From sequence record PP449093.1: a DNA stretch of 64,000 bases. One strand, written 5' to 3'. Numbering within the stretch: the stretch's first letter is position 1; each line of letters opens with the position of its first letter. The stretch comes from Escherichia coli phage phiS. This document shows, piece after piece, positions 15,812-24,542 of this stretch. The notes beneath the pieces were generated by a model that was not told the DNA's origin, ran no database searches, and was given only the letters and a program-made list of their open reading frames with translations. The position numbers and the translations under genes were made by a program.

Positions 15812-16090
15812 ATGATGCGAATTACTGCAACGCTGGATAAGACACACAAAGAAAGATTTTTCGGTATGATCTTAAAAACGCCGATTTTCGATAATTACCT
15901 TTATGTTGACTATGACGGTCACATTAGCTATAAATGTAAAAATGATATTCGTGATTCCTTTGGTGATAAATCACAAGCCGATATTCATGACCACTGGTGG
16001 AACCATGACGAACCTTTACGAGTTATCGCAGTTGATGTAAAAACAACAAAAGAAGCTGATAAGGTAGTGAATGATTATGAGCAAATTTAA
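15812..16090 (+). CDS. Small protein, member A of a 4-copy paralog family (HxHW motif)
   Basis: YLYVDYDGHISY ... HDHWW ... RVIAVDV shared with 16491, 16816 and 17513 ORFs. Confidence 0.5.
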   Translation: MMRITATLDKTHKERFFGMILKTPIFDNYLYVDYDGHISYKCKNDIRDSFGDKSQADIHDHWWNHDEPLRVIAVDVKTTKEADKVVNDYEQI

Positions 16091-16286
16091 AGAATACAAA
16101 GCATATCAACAGATTTTGCGAGTATACGCACCAGAGTTCGCCGAAAAGATGATGGAAGATGCATCAAAATGCCCGTCCTTTTCTGGAAACAAAAACCATT
16201 ATTCGACTGGTATTGTGTCATGGAAAGAAACCGCATATACTCAACAATGGATAGAGGTTTTCTCAAAAACTCTTGATTGGTGTTAA
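16077..16286 (+). CDS. Small protein, tandem paralog 1 (MSKFK family)
   Basis: MSKFKEYKAYQQI...MMEDA...WKETAY; paralog of next ORF. Confidence 0.45.
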   Translation: MSKFKEYKAYQQILRVYAPEFAEKMMEDASKCPSFSGNKNHYSTGIVSWKETAYTQQWIEVFSKTLDWC

Positions 16287-16288
16287 TT

Positions 16289-16504
16289 ATGAGCAAATTT
16301 AAAGATTATCGAGCATATAAAGCGATCTGCGATATATTCGATGAAAAGACCGCTCATGCAATGATGGAAGATGCAGAACAATATGAATCATTCGTCAATT
16401 CCAAAGATTGCACAGTAAACGGGATTGTGTGCTGGAAAGATACAAAGTATGAAGAAAAATGGATTACTGTGTATTACGGAGAACTAGAATATGAAATTAA
16501 CTAA
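16289..16504 (+). CDS. Small protein, tandem paralog 2 (MSKFK family)
   Basis: MSKFKDYRAYKAI...MMEDA...WKDTKY. Confidence 0.45.
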   Translation: MSKFKDYRAYKAICDIFDEKTAHAMMEDAEQYESFVNSKDCTVNGIVCWKDTKYEEKWITVYYGELEYEIN

Positions 16505-16811
16505 AAAGATTTTCCCAGAATTGCGTAACTGTCTGTTATTGGTTACTGAATATAAGCCGTATGCGATCTACTTGTATGTTGATGAAAATCTGAAAATCCG
16601 TTACTATGATTATACGTCTCCAGTGATGAAATCATTTGCTCACTCGATAGCAAATAACTGTATGAATCACAATCATTGGGTATCAGAAACGGATGACGAT
16701 GCGTCAGAAGTTGTAGTGGTTGCATGGAATCTATCACCAGCGGAAGCAGATCAAGCACGCATTAAGCATTATGCGAAAAACAATTGGTTTGACCTTATAA
16801 GTGAGGACTAA
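16491..16811 (+). CDS. Small protein, member B of the 4-copy paralog family
   Basis: ELRNCLLL...YLYVDENLKIRYYDY...HNHW...VVVVAWNL. Confidence 0.5.
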   Translation: MKLTKKIFPELRNCLLLVTEYKPYAIYLYVDENLKIRYYDYTSPVMKSFAHSIANNCMNHNHWVSETDDDASEVVVVAWNLSPAEADQARIKHYAKNNWFDLISED

Positions 16812-16815
16812 TATT

Positions 16816-17094
16816 ATGTTCAAAGTAGGTGATAAGTTTATTCTTAGTCGTGATATTCTACCTAATCTGAAAGGTTGTATCATCAATCCTAGTAAAAATT
16901 CATGGTTTTATCTGTTTATCGACGACAAACTGAATGTACGCGCCGAATATAAAGAAGGTCTTCGCACTGGCCTCGGTTTCTTTAACGATCACGATCATAG
17001 CCATTGGCTAAACGGTGGATTCGAAGCAACGGTGCTCGCGGTTGATGTGACCTACACAAACATCATAGAAAAATATCAAAAAATTATTTTATAA
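16816..17094 (+). CDS. Small protein, member C of the 4-copy paralog family
   Basis: FYLFIDDKLNVRAEY...HSHW...VLAVDVT. Confidence 0.5.
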   Translation: MFKVGDKFILSRDILPNLKGCIINPSKNSWFYLFIDDKLNVRAEYKEGLRTGLGFFNDHDHSHWLNGGFEATVLAVDVTYTNIIEKYQKIIL

Positions 17095-17100
17095 AAAGTG

Positions 17101-17129
17101 TTGACATAAGATCGGGTGTATAGCATAAT
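17101..17129 (+). promoter_or_regulatory. PeSL-like early promoter: TTGACA - 17 bp - CATAAT
   Basis: Inverted repeat GGGTGTAT agcataa TACACCC. Confidence 0.6.
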
Positions 17130-17175
17130 ACACCCATCGAAACGAGATACACTTTCTAACTAGGAGAATCAAATT

Positions 17176-17463
17176 ATGGCATACATCACCATCACTCTGA
17201 AAGTTAACAAATTTGCTCACGCTGCACACGAAACCGATAATGCAATCCGTAACAACAAGTTCGCACGTCTGGTACGCGATGCGGTAGCTAAAGAGTTCAA
17301 CTTCAAATTTGCCGATGGTAAAGTTATCACTAAATGGACTCATGACGGCGAAACTAAAGTAGAACTTGCTGACAACTTCGCAAATCAGGAATATGCACAC
17401 CGTCGCATTAATGAAATTATCAGCGATGAACTCTACTACGGTGTACAGGAAGGACTGTTTTAA
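17176..17463 (+). CDS. Hypothetical protein (95 aa)
   Basis: GGAG RBS, downstream of PeSL. Confidence 0.45.
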   Translation: MAYITITLKVNKFAHAAHETDNAIRNNKFARLVRDAVAKEFNFKFADGKVITKWTHDGETKVELADNFANQEYAHRRINEIISDELYYGVQEGLF

Positions 17464-17512
17464 TATATGGGGCGTTAAGCCACTTTTAATCTATCTGAAT
17501 GAGGATATCACT

Positions 17513-17821
17513 ATGAAAAATCTTGTAGTTGAATTTACCCGCGAGAATTTACCACAATTACGCAACTCTCTGCTTAAACTAGAGAACAGTAATTATGATG
17601 TATATTTTTACATCACAGAAGACCTAGAGATCCTTTACGCAGATTATCCAGGTCCGATCCGTACTTTCGAAACAGCATCAAAGTATAAAAATGTTTACGG
17701 TCATGAGCACTGGTTACGAGAAAACCCAGGTCGCAAGAAAGCACGCGTTAAAGTGCTGGCGATTGACATAACACCAGCATACGCCGACCGGATTGCACAG
17801 AATGATTATTTGTCTAAATGA
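17513..17821 (+). CDS. Small protein, member D of the 4-copy paralog family
   Basis: LPQLRNSLLKL...VYFYITEDLEILYADY...HEHW...VLAIDIT; GAGGA RBS. Confidence 0.5.
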   Translation: MKNLVVEFTRENLPQLRNSLLKLENSNYDVYFYITEDLEILYADYPGPIRTFETASKYKNVYGHEHWLRENPGRKKARVKVLAIDITPAYADRIAQNDYLSK

Positions 17822-18895: not shown

Positions 18896-19147
18896 ATGGC
18901 TAACATCGAAACCGCAAAGAAAATCGCTAAAGACCTGAACGTTAAAGGCTTCCGTAAACTGAAATTACAGCGTGTACGCTACACCATCGGCAAACAGTGC
19001 TCTTTCATGAGCGAAGAAATTGCTAACAGCCTGATTGATAACCTGATTGCGGCTGGCTGGGAAGTTGCGGATCTGAAAACTTGCCGCGAACTGGCTAACA
19101 AAGGTCTTTTAGATTCTGTTACTATCAAACCAATGGGGGCAGCGTGA
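18896..19147 (+). CDS. Hypothetical protein (83 aa)
   Basis: GGAG RBS, PeSL upstream. Confidence 0.45.
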   Translation: MANIETAKKIAKDLNVKGFRKLKLQRVRYTIGKQCSFMSEEIANSLIDNLIAAGWEVADLKTCRELANKGLLDSVTIKPMGAA

Positions 19148-19680
19148 ACAATATAGACTGGAAGAAATACTTTAATTATGATCCTGATACTGGTATTCTT
19201 ACATGGAAGGAGAGAACAGATATACACCCATCAAGAATAAAACAATGGAATGCTGCATGGGCTGGAAAGGAGGTCGGGTCACTAGGAAGTGGTGGACGTT
19301 ATCTTGAATCGTCAATAAAAATTGACGGTAAAATTATTAACTACAAAGTTCATCGAGTATGTTATATTATCCACAATGGACCTATACCAGAAGGATATGA
19401 AGTAGACCATATTAATCACATTAAGACAGATAATAGAGCGGTGAATTTTGAACTTAAGACACATCAAGACAACATGAGGAATCAAACAAAATCTAAAAAG
19501 AATACAAGCGGACACAGTGGAATACATAAAAACAAATACAATAAATGGGTAGTTAGAATTGGCAGCGGTCGTCGTGGTGATAGAAAATATCTAGGATGCT
19601 TCGATACATTAGAAGAAGCTATAGAGGTTAGAACCAAAGCAGAAAGAGAGCATGGCTATCATGAAAACCACGGAAAGTAA
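19144..19680 (+). CDS. HNH endonuclease with C-terminal AP2-like DNA-binding domain; GTG start
   Basis: HNH core YEVDHINHIKTDNRAVNFELKTHQDNMRNQ; AP2-like GIHKNKYNKWVVRIGSGRRGDRKYLGCFDTLEEAIEVR. Confidence 0.7.
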   Translation: MNNIDWKKYFNYDPDTGILTWKERTDIHPSRIKQWNAAWAGKEVGSLGSGGRYLESSIKIDGKIINYKVHRVCYIIHNGPIPEGYEVDHINHIKTDNRAVNFELKTHQDNMRNQTKSKKNTSGHSGIHKNKYNKWVVRIGSGRRGDRKYLGCFDTLEEAIEVRTKAEREHGYHENHGK

Positions 19681-20386
19681 ACTTATATTCTGTAATTTTG
19701 ATGGGTCCGGTATCATGGGTCTAGAATGGGCGAAAGCAGGTCATAAGGTGATCTGCTTTAACGCAGATGATGCGGATCATGGAACATATAAAAAATACAA
19801 CACTCGATTTGAGCATCCCAACCTAACATATGTTAATGCATGGATTGACCTAGATTGGTTGGAAAGGGCAATGGACCTTGAATGGGGCAAACCGGATATG
19901 ATCTTTGCGTTTCCTAGCTGTTCAAATTTAGCGGTTAGTGGCGCTGCACATTTTGAGCGTAAGCGAAAAACTCTAGGTCCACTCATTCAGCATAGAGATG
20001 TTCAAACAGCTAAAATAACCGCTTATTTGGGTGAATGGCTAGGAGTTCCCTACATGATAGAGAATCCTGTAAGCGTTATCTCTAGCATGTGGCGTAAGCC
20101 TGATTATATGTTCCATCCGTGGGAATATGGCGGTTATTTGCCGGAAGATGATAAACATCCTACTTTTCCTGAGTATATTGCCGCCCGTGATATGTACCCG
20201 AAAAGGACTTGCTTATGGACCGGACAAGGCTTTATAATGCCAGAAAAGAAACCGTTGCAGATTAATAAAGGGTACAGTAAACAGCATTCTAAGCTAGGCG
20301 GGAAAGGAACGAAAACAAAGACTATAAGGTCACTTACCCCGCGAGGATTCGCAAAGGCAGTATTTGAAGCAAATAAGGATCTATAA
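19652..20386 (+). CDS. Compact cytosine-C5 methyltransferase-like protein (catalytic domain only)
   Basis: Motif I-like FCNFDGSGIMG, motif IV-like DMIFAFPSCSNLAVSG (PSC instead of canonical PCQ), motif VI-like MIENP; start overlaps 3' end of the HNH-AP2 gene. Confidence 0.55.
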   Translation: MAIMKTTESKLIFCNFDGSGIMGLEWAKAGHKVICFNADDADHGTYKKYNTRFEHPNLTYVNAWIDLDWLERAMDLEWGKPDMIFAFPSCSNLAVSGAAHFERKRKTLGPLIQHRDVQTAKITAYLGEWLGVPYMIENPVSVISSMWRKPDYMFHPWEYGGYLPEDDKHPTFPEYIAARDMYPKRTCLWTGQGFIMPEKKPLQINKGYSKQHSKLGGKGTKTKTIRSLTPRGFAKAVFEANKDL

Positions 20387-20715
20387 TGAGATTGTTTAAG
20401 TATTCGCTAACGTCAAATTACGATAAACAAGGTCATTGCATCCGTTGCCCTGATTGTCATAACCATAACATCGAAAGCAAGATCACCGATCATATTGATG
20501 GACTTTGGTCGCCAGCAAGTGAAATAGAATACTATTGCGCTGATTGTGGAATTGTAGTAGCATATTGGGCATACGGATCATATGATCCATACTTCCAGAT
20601 GGGAGAGCGTTCAATCCCTGCGCTTATCTGGAGAATTAAGAACAATATCCGCCATTCATGGGATGAGTTATTAAAAGATATTGATTTACGTGATGATCCA
20701 TTCAGGAGACTATAA
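20386..20715 (+). CDS. Zinc-ribbon protein (two CxxC pairs)
   Basis: CIRCPDC ... CADCG. Confidence 0.45.
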   Translation: MRLFKYSLTSNYDKQGHCIRCPDCHNHNIESKITDHIDGLWSPASEIEYYCADCGIVVAYWAYGSYDPYFQMGERSIPALIWRIKNNIRHSWDELLKDIDLRDDPFRRL

Positions 20716-20716
20716 C

Positions 20717-21235
20717 ATGAACAGATTAACCCCTAAACGCCGTTACTATACCAATACTAAAAACTTTGTCATCTCTGTTTATGAGGCGTGGTTAGAAGAT
20801 GGCTATATCAACATGAACCCAGATTATCAGCGTCCTTTGGTATGGGACACCGAAAACAAACGTATGTTTATCGAAAACCTGATTAATGATTTTCCGGTTG
20901 GTGCTATCGCAATGGCTAAGATTGATGATGGCTCTCGATATGAGATCGAAATCGTGGACGGTAAACAGCGTTTAAACGCAATATTCTCCTTCATGAAGGA
21001 TGAGTTTAGCATTGCTGGTAATGATGATTCTATGCTGTATTACAGTGATTTTACGCCAGCAGAAAAGCGACGTTTCCGAAATCTCGGACTACCCGCGATA
21101 ATGATGGAAGAGAGCACACGAGAAGACCGATTAGAGTATTTCTACAAAACAAACTTTTTCGGTGTCCCTCAATCGGAAGAACATCGCCAGCATGTGATTT
21201 CCCTATTGCAAGATGAGCAATTAAAAAATAACTAA
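20717..21235 (+). CDS. Standalone DUF262 (ParB/Srx-like NTPase domain) protein
   Basis: PDYQRPLVW ... IVDGKQRLNAI matches the DUF262 signature (DxQR ... DGQQR); AGGAGA RBS before ATG 20717. Confidence 0.55.
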   Translation: MNRLTPKRRYYTNTKNFVISVYEAWLEDGYINMNPDYQRPLVWDTENKRMFIENLINDFPVGAIAMAKIDDGSRYEIEIVDGKQRLNAIFSFMKDEFSIAGNDDSMLYYSDFTPAEKRRFRNLGLPAIMMEESTREDRLEYFYKTNFFGVPQSEEHRQHVISLLQDEQLKNN

Positions 21236-21587: not shown

Positions 21588-23639
21588 ATGTTTAACTTAG
21601 AAATCGACGATCTAATGATTGAATCTTTCGAGAAATGGCTGTTGACGGAAGAGGAAGAAAACTTTGGTAGTATTGCCCCGGTACAGTGCTTAAAGCCTAA
21701 GCAGAATCCTAAACAGCTTTTTGCAGTACAGACACGCGATAAAGATGTGATTGTCCGTCTTTGTAACTTCACCAACAAAACACCTAAAATCATTCGTATG
21801 GGTGACAAGACAGCACATGTTGTACTGTGCGAAATGAACAAAAGCGGTCGTATTGTACAGCTTAAAAATGGTCTAGGCGATAACCCGATTGCAGTTATGG
21901 CAAGTGCTTTTGATGTGGTTATGGAAACAGCCCGTAAAGCGCAATTAGACGCTGTTATGTTCCGTTTTAACGTATCCCGCATGAAAGGTAAGACCGAACT
22001 GGTTAAGCGCGTTATAGAGCGTTTGGTGCGTCGTACACCGAAGTTTGAAGTATTCCAGCAGGAAGTAATGACCAGCAAAAAGATCGCTTTAGTTGTTGTC
22101 AAGCGTCGCGGTATGGCGATTGATAAGATTAAAGGGATTAAACTTGATGATTCCTTGTTCACTAAAGTAGAAAGTGATTTAGGTGATCGCTGGGTATCTA
22201 AGGCTACTGGTGAATCTCTGACTAAAGATGAGGCGTATGCGGCTAGTCTTGTGTCAGAAGAAGAACGAAACGCGGAAGCGGAACAACGCGTAGCGGCTAA
22301 ATCTCGTTTGACTAAAGAAGAAATGCTGAAAACTCAAGCGACCTATAACAGCGACTATGTGAATCATCCAGAAAAAATTAATCTTAAACCGGAAGAAGAT
22401 ATCACCGAAGCCGAACCTAAGAAACAGTTTAATACTCTGATTGATCGTCAAGCCTTAGAACGTTCAACCGCTCGTTCTCTGAATGAATGGACAAGTGATA
22501 TTATCACTCGCTATGGTTTCATGCGTACTATTTTTGAAAGCGAAGCCGATGCAAAATACGCAGTAAGCGAACTGGTAAAAGTTCAGGATCAATATGATCC
22601 GTTGTCTGCGGAAGTTATCGCAGCATCAATCAAACGCTTAAAAGAAATCATGAGCGAGGAAGTATTCGAAAACAAGATCACCGCCCTGGCAATGGATCGA
22701 GTAGACCAGTCTATGCCAGCAGATGTAAAAGCTGAAATGCTGCGTAGTCATATCACCCAGATTAAAACCGATGCCCTACGTAATGTTGCTTCCGGTATGT
22801 TTGAAGCAATTGCTAGCAACATGGGTGAAATGATGGCAGATATTGATCTTGATCTGCCGGGCGCGGAAGGTTTTGTATTGAGCGAATATGCCGATGCAGC
22901 ATACATCAATATGAACAACTTCCTAACCGACCGTAAGCTGGAAGAGTTTGAAGGCATCGCAGATCCAGAAGAATTGGTCAAGATGTGCGATGCACTGGAT
23001 AATGCCTTCTCTAACTATGGTGTTAAACTTGATCCGGGTACTATTCTGTATCGTGGTATGGACTTCCGGTCGCAAATGTGGGAAACTGCACGTAAGCAAA
23101 AAGCGTTTTACTTTAAAAACTATGTGAGCACTTCCCTTGCACCTAACATTTTTGGTGGCTGGAATGCAAACGTGGCTAGTGCCATTGCTGGTGTTGATTC
23201 TATGGCTGGCTCTCGCGGTGAAGGTGGCGCTAATGTTGCTTTCTCCATTGCTGGCGCGGAAAACATCCCTGTATTGCCAGTAGGTAACAAAGCATTTGCT
23301 TACAAAGAATGCGAGATTTTACTTCCTCGCGGTGTTGTGTTATCCTTTGATACGGTAACTCGTGCTACGGCATCGACGGATTCACAAGAAACATATTACA
23401 TTGAGGCACATATTATGAACAAAAGTGAACTGGCAGCATTACAAGAATCTGGCGAAATGATCGCGGACGGTGATGCATTCATCCGTGAAGGTGTTGTTAA
23501 ACCTGCTTCTGACCTGTCTTTCTCCAGCTTCATTAGCGAAGCTAAAACCGAACGTAAGAAAGCAGATAAGGCAACTCTACGTCAGCTTATCGCTGATCTG
23601 GTATCTGTAGACGCAATGCCAGATAAATTTAAAATGTAA
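21588..23639 (+). CDS. alt: ADP-ribosyltransferase Alt (head-packaged)
   Basis: 683 aa (T4 Alt is about 682); R-S-E catalytic triad motifs LYRG, VSTSLAP, ECEILLPRG; CATAAATA late-promoter-like box at 21547-21554. Confidence 0.85.
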   Translation: MFNLEIDDLMIESFEKWLLTEEEENFGSIAPVQCLKPKQNPKQLFAVQTRDKDVIVRLCNFTNKTPKIIRMGDKTAHVVLCEMNKSGRIVQLKNGLGDNPIAVMASAFDVVMETARKAQLDAVMFRFNVSRMKGKTELVKRVIERLVRRTPKFEVFQQEVMTSKKIALVVVKRRGMAIDKIKGIKLDDSLFTKVESDLGDRWVSKATGESLTKDEAYAASLVSEEERNAEAEQRVAAKSRLTKEEMLKTQATYNSDYVNHPEKINLKPEEDITEAEPKKQFNTLIDRQALERSTARSLNEWTSDIITRYGFMRTIFESEADAKYAVSELVKVQDQYDPLSAEVIAASIKRLKEIMSEEVFENKITALAMDRVDQSMPADVKAEMLRSHITQIKTDALRNVASGMFEAIASNMGEMMADIDLDLPGAEGFVLSEYADAAYINMNNFLTDRKLEEFEGIADPEELVKMCDALDNAFSNYGVKLDPGTILYRGMDFRSQMWETARKQKAFYFKNYVSTSLAPNIFGGWNANVASAIAGVDSMAGSRGEGGANVAFSIAGAENIPVLPVGNKAFAYKECEILLPRGVVLSFDTVTRATASTDSQETYYIEAHIMNKSELAALQESGEMIADGDAFIREGVVKPASDLSFSSFISEAKTERKKADKATLRQLIADLVSVDAMPDKFKM

Positions 23640-23717: not shown

Positions 23718-24542
23718 ATGTTCAAGAAATTACAGGATTTTCGTCTTTCGGAAGAAGCACGCGAATCAATGATGGAACGTATGGATAATTACATCGAAAC
23801 ATATGGCATCGAGGGGATTAATGGTTACATGATCACTGAGATGATCAGCGATCAGATTAACTTTGATGATTATGTGAAGGTTATCCGCTTCCTTGAGCGT
23901 GAGACACAAGATTATGGATTTGTCAAGAAAATCATTAATGTGATGTATGAAGTACACTCCGAAGACTTTGGAGATAATGTATTCAAACATTACAAACATA
24001 ACAATATAACCCCAGCAGAATATAATGCAATCTGTGATTATGTGTCTGAACAATACGAATGGGTAAATGGTGCTCTCTTAGGGGAAGAAGACATGACCGA
24101 TGAGATATCAGAGATTGTTGATTTGATGGATTGTGTCATGGATAAAACCGAAAAGTTAAACGGTACTCTTTATCGCGGTCAACATCTTGACATTCAGACA
24201 ATAGAGCGTATTATTGAAGATAAGGAATTTACCTTTAAAAACTTTGTGTCGACCAGCATGACACCAATCATCTTTGGAGGCTGGCTTTCAAACAGCACTA
24301 GCCTTTATTGTGAGAATCGATATGAATCAATGACCGGAAAGATGCAACATTCTTGTAATGTATCGTGGGTAATTGACGTAAAAGATCATAAAGGTTTTGT
24401 CGTTGGGTCAATTGCATGGAACCCTTGCGAATGTGAAGTAATTTTACCGCGCGGGACTTGCGTCAAGGTAAACGACGTAGTAGAATCTTTCGGCGATGAG
24501 AATCGTAGACAATTTACAATTTTCGGTGAGGTGACTAAATGA
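23718..24542 (+). CDS. Second ADP-ribosyltransferase (Alt/Mod-like, 274 aa)
   Basis: LYRGQHL, FVSTSMTPIIFGGW, ECEVILPRG parallel the Alt catalytic motifs. Confidence 0.7.
   Translation: MFKKLQDFRLSEEARESMMERMDNYIETYGIEGINGYMITEMISDQINFDDYVKVIRFLERETQDYGFVKKIINVMYEVHSEDFGDNVFKHYKHNNITPAEYNAICDYVSEQYEWVNGALLGEEDMTDEISEIVDLMDCVMDKTEKLNGTLYRGQHLDIQTIERIIEDKEFTFKNFVSTSMTPIIFGGWLSNSTSLYCENRYESMTGKMQHSCNVSWVIDVKDHKGFVVGSIAWNPCECEVILPRGTCVKVNDVVESFGDENRRQFTIFGEVTK

Follow-up and report, generated by a model that had tools for sequence, protein, structure and literature searches.

A Dcm-like mini C5-cytosine methyltransferase gene of Escherichia coli phage phiS with a PSC motif and an adjoining HNH endonuclease gene

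The Methyltransferase Gene of Phage phiS and Its Start Codon

The subject of this analysis is a gene for a small, Dcm-like C5-cytosine DNA methyltransferase (MTase), predicted from sequence in the genome of Escherichia coli phage phiS (record PP449093.1), of which a stretch of 64,000 nt was analyzed and is referred to here as the window. By DNA similarity the window is that of a Krischvirus, an RB49-like T4-type coliphage, and is about 94% identical to at least 56 records. The MTase gene lies on the plus strand at 19652–20386 and encodes 244 amino acids from an ATG, and this open reading frame (ORF) is present as described in an earlier reading of the DNA made from its letters alone (the sequence-only reading). 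It is preceded on the same strand by a gene for a free-standing HNH endonuclease of the HNH_3, AP2-type (19144–19680; PF13392, E 3e-17; PHROG 99). As that reading had also stated, the MTase gene begins within the 3′ end of the HNH gene; the overlap amounts to 29 nt if counted from the ATG at 19652 and to 20 nt if counted from a second ATG at 19661. The second ATG, which yields a product of 241 aa, is the more probable start, because a Shine-Dalgarno-like AAGAGAG is found 10 nt upstream of it and because it is the start chosen at NCBI, where an exact-sequence look-up retrieved the 241-aa product as WWV92319.1, a "hypothetical protein" of Escherichia coli phage phiS.

In many Krischvirus records the start of the same gene is placed at a downstream Met (MGLEWAKAG…, 223 aa; e.g., locus L001 from phage kaaroe, 3432–4103). 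This choice removes the FDGSG of motif I, although the upstream KQKLIFCNFDGSGI is present in frame. Forms of 223 aa also occur among the members of the protein cluster to which the phiS MTase belongs, and the 223-aa annotation of the Krischviruses probably is a systematic mis-annotation of the start codon. The phiS gene, at present a "hypothetical protein," can now be named as a Dcm-like C5-cytosine methyltransferase; in many Krischvirus records it is likewise called hypothetical or is started downstream with loss of the motif for binding of S-adenosylmethionine (SAM).

A Large Phage Family of Small Methyltransferases

The deduced protein matched PHROG 757 ("DNA methyltransferase") over its full length (residues 4–243, E 1.5e-88) and almost certainly belongs to this phage family of Dcm-like mini C5-MTases. 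Relatives were detected by tblastn in 1,509 phage records, including T1-like Drexlerviridae, Dhillonvirus, rV5-like phages, Phapecoctavirus and Klebsiella Webervirus, and are annotated variously as DNA, Dcm-like or C-5 cytosine methyltransferase. More than 3,000 family clusters were found in a large protein database, with lengths of 219–259 aa among the matches listed, and an exhaustive profile search with the family hidden Markov model returned 1,930 representatives at 50% identity, most of them with 200–260 aa. The phiS MTase with its 244 (or 241) aa fits this family range of about 200–260 aa and carries no extra domain. As the small size is common to the whole family, it is a family trait and not the result of a truncation, and a truncated pseudogene was rejected for the same reason. 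All residues that are invariant in the family (C90, E137, P139, P156, Y182, W189 and P197) are present in the phiS MTase, and the Dcm-like protein of phage KarlJaspers (Bas06) is 54% identical to it over the full length (E 7e-90). The phiS gene is an ordinary member of a large, already recognized and partly characterized phage family. That the family is large, already annotated and in part characterized had escaped the sequence-only reading.

Predicted Fold and Catalytic Motifs

The AlphaFold2 model, built with the family alignment, reached a mean predicted local distance difference test score (pLDDT) of 90.1 and a predicted template modeling score (pTM) of 0.88. It shows a class I SAM-MTase fold which is nearest to the catalytic domains of C5-MTases. 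DNMT3A and DNMT1 were the top matches in Foldseek; the best structural matches of the model are DNA MTases, and Dnmt2 was also among the structural neighbors. Structure prediction, suggested earlier as a check, returned a C5-MTase fold and not a non-MTase fold. On the level of sequence, the Pfam profile PF00145 was matched by 24 of 40 close relatives, and three of six members that were scanned singly scored above its gathering cutoff (up to 28.5 bits vs. 22); the matches were always confined to profile positions 4–92, which correspond to motifs I–IV.

For the assignment of single residues, M.HhaI (10mh_A) served as the reference sequence and was aligned to the family profiles with hhalign, which was used for the register only and not as evidence of homology. 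Conservation was counted in an alignment of 72 diverse representatives with 30–51% identity. In the hhalign register, FDGSG lies on the FAGLGG of M.HhaI, C90 on its catalytic C81 and S89 on P80. Motif I (FDGSG, residues 16–20, 19697–19711, plus strand, as are all further motifs) would form the SAM-binding loop after strand 1; G20 and a Ser or Thr at position 19 are kept, and across the wider family the first Gly varies. The region of motif IV comprises DMIFAFPSCSNLAVSG (residues 82–97), with the catalytic loop FPSCSNLAVSG at 19910–19942. In this loop S89 is encoded by AGC (19916–19918) and the predicted nucleophile C90, which is invariant in 72 of 72 homologs, by TGT (19919–19921). Motif VI is represented by ENP (residues 137–139, 20060–20068), the equivalent of ENV, with E137 predicted to donate the proton to N3. 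No exchange of E137 or P139 occurs among the 72 sequences, N138 is found in 70 of them, and the position after strand 5 fits the fold. The identification of motifs I, IV and VI in the sequence-only reading, and with it the classification as a C5-MTase-like protein, was thus correct, and the motifs do not vanish when tested against coincidence in many homologs, as C90, E137 and P139 are shared by all 72.

Toward the C-terminus the assignments are made by resemblance. The basic pair K184-R185 before strand 7 (20201–20206; K184 in 71 of 72) is motif VIII-like and corresponds to K175/K176 of the Dcm of phage K42 by way of the KarlJaspers alignment; those two residues were assigned to substrate binding by superposition with DNMT3A (bioRxiv 10.1101/2023.08.16.553469). 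The segment IRSLTPRGFAKA (20327–20359) resembles motif IX (RxLTPRE) by eye, and the profile alignments stop short of it. Within IRSLTPRGFA, R226 (70/72), S227 (65/72), P230 (68/72) and G232 (70/72) are conserved. About 35 residues (192–225) with lower pLDDT separate the motif VIII-like strand from the motif IX-like segment. A classical target recognition domain (TRD) cannot be accommodated in this interval, and the protein as a whole falls far below the length of classical C5-MTases, as the sequence-only reading had stated.

E. coli Dcm, M.EcoRII and M.HhaI comprise 327–477 aa and possess a TRD of at least 80 aa between motifs VIII and IX, a QxRxR and a GNxV. In comparison with these classical enzymes, to which it shows no significant sequence match, the phiS MTase has ENP instead of ENV, Thr or Ser instead of Gln after the Cys, and K-R instead of R-x-R. 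With the catalytic domains of DNMT3A and DNMT3B it shares only 12–15% identity; the DNMT3 enzymes differ further by PCN, a clear motif X, a greater length (about 280 aa) and their oligomerization with DNMT3L on CpG.

The PSC Motif as a Rare Allele

The presence of PSC at the catalytic Cys had been taken as a defining feature of the protein. This view did not survive the comparison within the family, in which the motif is the canonical PPC and PSC a rare allele of phiS. In an alignment of 40 close relatives the motif reads FAFPPCTDLAVSG, with FPPCTD as the family consensus and FPPCTN in the nearest Krischvirus relatives; the phiS MTase deviates from FPPCTD at S89, S91 and N92. The PPC form, as in GPPCQ, is common to many C5-MTases. 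As aligned, PSC arises by exchange of the second Pro of the canonical PPC for Ser; no residue has been inserted into PCQ. Column 89 of the 72 diverse homologs contains Pro in 53 sequences, Val and Glu in seven each, Ser and Asp in two each and Thr in one. The Pro before the Cys is therefore missing in 19 of 72 relatives (about 26%), always with retention of the Cys, and P88 is found in 66. About a quarter of the lineages are without the Pro and keep the nucleophile, which places PSC inside the natural variation of the family.

Within the Krischviruses PSC is unique. The codons of motif IV, TTC CCA CCG TGC ACC in the relatives, read TTT CCT AGC TGT TCA in phiS; differences at eight of 15 nt exclude a sequencing slip. 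Over the 75 nt surrounding motif IV, identity to the phage records did not exceed 82%, and the exact 26-mer encoding PSC was found neither in IMG/VR nor in the JGI metagenomes. The PSC allele represents a natural test of whether the proline of the "PC" dipeptide is dispensable.

A Mosaic Tract Joins the HNH Gene to the 5′ Half of the Methyltransferase Gene

A sliding-window comparison with three RB49-like loci revealed 98–100% identity up to position 19148 and again from 20007. The 858 nt in between (19149–20006, plus strand), delimited by sliding identity and exact junctions, comprise the HNH gene and codons 1–118 of the MTase gene, and in these codons the nucleotide identity to the RB49-like loci is only 71–82%. 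Judged from the junctions, the 5′ 118 codons and the HNH gene clearly were recombined in together as one tract. Of the synonymous sites in the imported MTase half, 56 of 74 differ, with a nonsynonymous divergence (dN) of 0.10 and a ratio of nonsynonymous to synonymous divergence (omega) of about 0.06; for the 3′ part of the gene the synonymous divergence (dS) is 0.15 and omega 0.05. With synonymous change at saturation, such values speak for strong purifying selection on the imported half. Its protein sequence is closest to the Krischvirus type (86% amino acid identity), and we therefore regard the N-terminal half as an old, deeply diverged allele that selection has maintained and whose source is a relative not yet sampled. 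A single co-conversion tract would then have carried the HNH gene together with the PSC-encoding 5′ half from this Krischvirus-type allele. No donor of the tract was found in the phage collection, where the best matches reached 78–80% (RB49-like) and 67% (T1-like).

Recurrent Linkage of One HNH Lineage to dcm-Like Genes

In 63 related phage records, whose coverage of the query is only 77%, the HNH gene is absent, and it occurs in none of the at least 56 records that are about 94% identical to the window. It is hence a presence/absence polymorphism with a flanking donor tract among otherwise near-identical genomes. An HNH protein of 65% identity is encoded in the T1-like phages Poky, the JLBYU07/10/19 group, PeterMerian and others, in the same position, i.e., overlapping the start of the Dcm-like gene. 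When Poky was compared with FritzSarasin, which lacks the HNH gene, the flanks were 97–100% identical on both sides, and nearly the whole MTase gene was replaced (35–75% identity) with identity returning in the last 50 nt or so. By this comparison it is a parallel replacement of an HNH and Dcm cassette. The HNH-linked T1-like alleles of Poky and PeterMerian read FPDC, so that the proline of the PC dipeptide is missing here as well. Among 87 loci, an HNH gene directly upstream is lacking at all 81 PPC alleles and present at three of five non-Pro alleles. A scan of IMG/VR for relatives of the HNH protein returned distant ones only (at most 48% identity), none of them beside an MTase gene.

Free-standing homing endonuclease genes of T4-like phages include the Seg and Mob types. 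The phiS locus resembles these by the position of the HNH gene between other genes, by its presence/absence polymorphism and by a donor flank consistent with co-conversion. It differs in that one HNH lineage (65% identity) is tied to the same target gene in two phage families, and both the cleavage site and homing are putative here. The HNH-dcm cassette offers a tidy case of a mobile endonuclease moving a segment that encodes an active site between phages.

Two further loci with HNH genes of the same lineage were observed. In Salmonella phage vB_GS71 (L110, PV090992.1, 1186–2116) the Dcm-like gene downstream of the HNH gene has an in-frame deletion (…DGSGIM|VETVGNHFG…), which costs the protein about 90 residues, motif IV with its catalytic Cys among them; the "IM" at the junction is a microhomology in common with the intact Poky allele. 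This MTase looks inactivated, and the deletion possibly is the scar of a break repair. In Shigella phage S2_02 (L111, OQ223306.1, 596–1123) the HNH protein ends with the same GYHENHGK, and its gene lies near the end of the Tunavirus genome with no Dcm-like gene downstream of it; Tunaviruses like JMPW2 have the MTase gene near that position. Both cases fit a recurrent loss of dcm, as in the retron escapers discussed below.

Proposed Function of the phiS Methyltransferase

Within the family, activity has been demonstrated for the Dcm of phage K42 only. All K42 escapers of retron Ec86 disrupt its 711-bp dcm gene (bioRxiv 10.1101/2023.08.16.553469; Wang et al., Cell Rep 2024;43:114857), by deletion or frameshift (bioRxiv 10.1101/2023.08.16.553469). 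Expression of K42 dcm alone in E. coli rendered retron Ec86 toxic and raised the content of 5-methylcytosine (5mC) in the multicopy single-stranded DNA (msDNA) of the retron, as determined by liquid chromatography-mass spectrometry, and a C82A/E128A/K175A/K176A mutant had neither effect; mutation of a CCTGG in the stem-loop of the msDNA abolished the defense (bioRxiv 10.1101/2023.08.16.553469). The K42 genome is 95.4% identical to that of KarlJaspers/Bas06 (bioRxiv 10.1101/2023.08.16.553469), and alignment via the 711-bp KarlJaspers gene maps the four mutated residues to C90, E137, K184 and R185 of the phiS protein. A retron paper of 2025 in PLoS Biol mentions neither cytosine nor Dcm. Through the K42 result, stand-alone DNA C5-methylation in vivo is established for one member of the family, and the proteins of PHROG 757 very probably are real C5-MTases. 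The KarlJaspers protein resembles the phiS MTase in family and architecture (236 vs. 244 aa) and carries the catalytic Cys, the Glu and the basic pair at matching positions. Differences are its canonical FPPCTD, the lack of an upstream HNH gene and its origin from a T1-like siphovirus, whereas the window derives from a T4-like myovirus.

The best explanation overall is likely to be that phiS encodes a stand-alone, SAM-dependent DNA C5-MTase, the PSC-containing half of which was imported with the HNH gene. In the proposed mechanism SAM would bind at the FDGSG loop and the target cytosine would be flipped into the pocket, where Cys90 would attack C6 while Glu137 of the ENP motif would protonate N3; K184 and R185 would hold the substrate, and the methyl group would be passed to C5 of the cytosine. 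A minimal, DNMT3-like recognition region (about residues 192–225 together with the highly conserved insert 143–185) would read a short site. Phage DNA would thus be methylated after replication at a short specific site, for which CCWGG is the foremost candidate, and methylated CCWGG could shield the otherwise unmodified Krischvirus genome from restriction of the EcoRII type. We give CCWGG an even chance of being the target. As to the PSC allele itself, the balance tips toward an active enzyme, perhaps with altered kinetics; in favor of this speak the low omega of the imported half and the 19 of 72 relatives without the Pro.

Sparse marks are also suggested by the DNA of related phages. HpaII and NheI, which are sensitive to 5mC, cut RB49 DNA, and a global, non-specific cytosine methylase was rejected for this reason. 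DNA of the Krischvirus TB34 contains canonical nucleosides only, with no modified one detectable by high-performance liquid chromatography/mass spectrometry (PMC13390438). Taken together, the cutting of RB49 DNA and the canonical cytosine of TB34 speak against methylation in bulk or without specificity and favor sparse marks at specific sites. The window contains 24 CCWGG sites, compared with 52.3 ± 7.1 expected from dinucleotide-preserving shuffles (z about −4), and full methylation at 24 sites per 64 kb would mark only an estimated 0.2% or so of the cytosines. In phages whose cytosine is unmodified the family probably counters restriction, and one homolog is the trigger of retron Ec86. Nothing here overturns the current understanding.

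Several points weigh against this explanation. In searches of Pfam, NCBIfam and PDB sequences the phiS MTase itself had no match: it remained without PF00145 even at E 10, and no significant C5-MTase match emerged from the PDB sequences, whether the query was the protein alone or either of two family profiles. The hhalign comparison of the two family profiles with M.HhaI yielded negligible probabilities (3.3% and 0.2%). For motifs VIII and IX the assignment goes no further than resemblance, and no motif X (GNxV) is found between the motif IX-like segment and the stop codon. The CCWGG specificity of the family derives from the analogy with E. coli Dcm and from the msDNA mutagenesis, not from site mapping (bioRxiv 10.1101/2023.08.16.553469), and the scarcity of CCWGG in the window fits an avoidance of EcoRII/Dcm-type sites, which would be less needed if the sites were fully protected. 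A pairwise omega cannot rule out a recent inactivation on the phiS branch. Finally, classical C5-MTases strongly conserve the Pro in PC, and P89S together with T91S could reduce or abolish the activity.

Alternative Explanations

The last of these points leads to the main rival, according to which the PSC allele is catalytically impaired or dead, i.e., a hypomorph or a DNA-binding-only protein, with selection by abortive-infection sensors such as retron Ec86, or a gene en route to its loss, as possible causes. We consider such an impairment, and likewise these causes, unlikely. The substitution affects the PC dipeptide right beside the nucleophile, and T91S alters the next residue; K42 evades retron Ec86 by deletion or frameshift of dcm; related HNH-linked cassettes have undergone loss (deletion of motif IV in vB_GS71, absence of the MTase gene in S2_02); and the phiS MTase, unlike some of its relatives, is without a PF00145 match. 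Against this stand the intact Cys90, Glu137 and all other family-invariant residues, the omega of about 0.06 in the imported half and the 26% of diverse representatives which naturally lack the Pro and keep the Cys; in the EcoRII MTase, Ala and Ser mutants of Pro185 reportedly retain reduced activity. The retained Cys and Glu and the low omega also disfavor the non-catalytic decoy that the sequence-only reading had proposed as one possibility.

A different explanation concerns the origin of PSC and is compatible with the stand-alone MTase, as it would explain why the PSC allele exists. In this explanation the adjacent HNH endonuclease recognizes or cuts the motif IV DNA of dcm genes without HNH, and PSC together with the clustered silent changes provides self-immunity. 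At the motif IV codons eight changes fall within 15 nt, of which the Pro-to-Ser exchange alone takes three, and the DNA of motif IV is among the three stretches best conserved between the HNH-less Krischvirus and T1-like alleles. Both HNH-linked alleles (PSC in phiS, PDC in Poky and PeterMerian) have altered TTC to TTT as well as the CCR codon of the Pro, an upstream HNH gene adjoins none of the 81 PPC alleles and three of the five non-Pro alleles, the imported tract ends 64 nt past motif IV, and the deletion in vB_GS71 covers it. On the other side, the HNH-linked alleles form two independent lineages only, and the window was picked because of its PSC; measured against the non-Pro background of 26% the remaining support amounts to p of about 0.26. 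Moreover, two loci with FPSC (L004) and FPEC (L081) have no adjacent HNH gene, the entire Poky allele is divergent so that its PDC may be mere lineage history, and a second cluster of changes is located at residues 102–116 of the phiS MTase. Self-immunity therefore appears doubtful to us, and equally tentative is the wider proposition that one HNH lineage may parasitize dcm-like genes across Krischvirus and Drexlerviridae by cutting the DNA of the FPPCT loop. If true, it would be a mobile nuclease and not enzymology that shapes the active site of the MTase, with PSC and PDC as tolerated immunity mutations.

Two suggestions of the sequence-only reading, a split enzyme and an action on nucleotides, are both highly improbable. 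In the former the zinc-ribbon protein encoded by the next gene (20386–20715, plus strand, 109 aa, PHROG 2993) would supply target recognition to an MTase that is almost devoid of a TRD. The start of this gene shares a base with the MTase stop codon (TAATG), so that the two are translationally coupled, and the gene pair is 97–98% conserved in Krischviruses. Yet none of 79 MTase loci outside the Krischviruses has a zinc-ribbon homolog within 4 kb, homologs of the zinc-ribbon protein occur in 243 phage records and are abutted or overlapped by an MTase gene only in Krischviruses, and the Dcm of K42, represented by the 54%-identical KarlJaspers homolog, methylates msDNA in E. coli when expressed alone. 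The split enzyme was rejected on account of this lack of co-occurrence; the zinc-ribbon protein is a neighbor of the MTase, not a demonstrated partner.

An action on free nucleotides (dCMP) or RNA instead of DNA, which the small size without a classical TRD and the presence of Dnmt2, a tRNA enzyme with C5-MTase fold, among the structural neighbors might suggest, is opposed by the homolog that places 5mC into DNA (msDNA) in a site-dependent manner, by the best structural matches being DNA MTases, and by the bulk 5mC expected from a nucleotide-level route, given that RB49 DNA is cut and TB34 has canonical cytosine.

Neighboring Genes and Related Phages

Downstream of the zinc-ribbon gene follows a gene for a DUF262/GmrSD_N-domain protein (20681–21235, plus strand, 184 aa; PF03235, E 4.7e-20). 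The protein consists of the GmrSD N-terminal domain alone and is thus a fragment-sized relative of a domain of Type IV restriction enzymes. The gene starts with a TTG inside the end of the zinc-ribbon gene and is 97–99% conserved in Krischviruses (L001–L003). Homologs of the zinc-ribbon and DUF262 proteins beside the MTase gene are confined to the three Krischvirus loci; the other 79 loci have neither.

A connection of the MTase gene with the hypermodified cytosine of Krischvirus SAP was considered as well. SAP (OZ034687.1) is reported to contain hydroxymethylated, glucosylated and gentiobiosylated cytosines, with a modification profile that groups with seven Tequatrovirus phages, and possesses no known pathway genes, while the 99.96%-identical TB34 (OX001802.1) has canonical cytosine (PMC13390438). 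SAP and its unmodified twin TB34 both carry the MTase gene with the same identity to the window; the gene therefore does not explain their difference, and the link was rejected.

Several records of the MG0656xx series, deposited as "Campylobacter phage" A119, A136, A14a/b, A13a, A112b and A15a, match T1-like and rV5-like coliphage DNA and include members of the MTase family. They show about 85% nucleotide identity to the Poky region and 53% amino acid identity to the phiS MTase, and their host label, Campylobacter jejuni, looks doubtful.

Upstream in the window, a run of small paralogous ORFs extends over 15812–17821 on the plus strand. Four of them (92–151 aa) have the C-terminal pattern "H.HW … (V/I)LA(V/I)D(V/I)," two (71 and 75 aa) begin with MSKFK(E/D)Y(K/R)AY, and their relatives are annotated as hypothetical proteins only. 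Further downstream, the counterpart in phage kaaroe of a 683-aa ORF (21588–23639) is annotated as an Alt-like RNA polymerase ADP-ribosylase. A similar C-terminal pattern, "YRG…F.NYVSTS…CE(I/V)LLPRG," in the 274-aa ORF at 23718–24542 suggests that this gene may encode a second ADP-ribosyltransferase.

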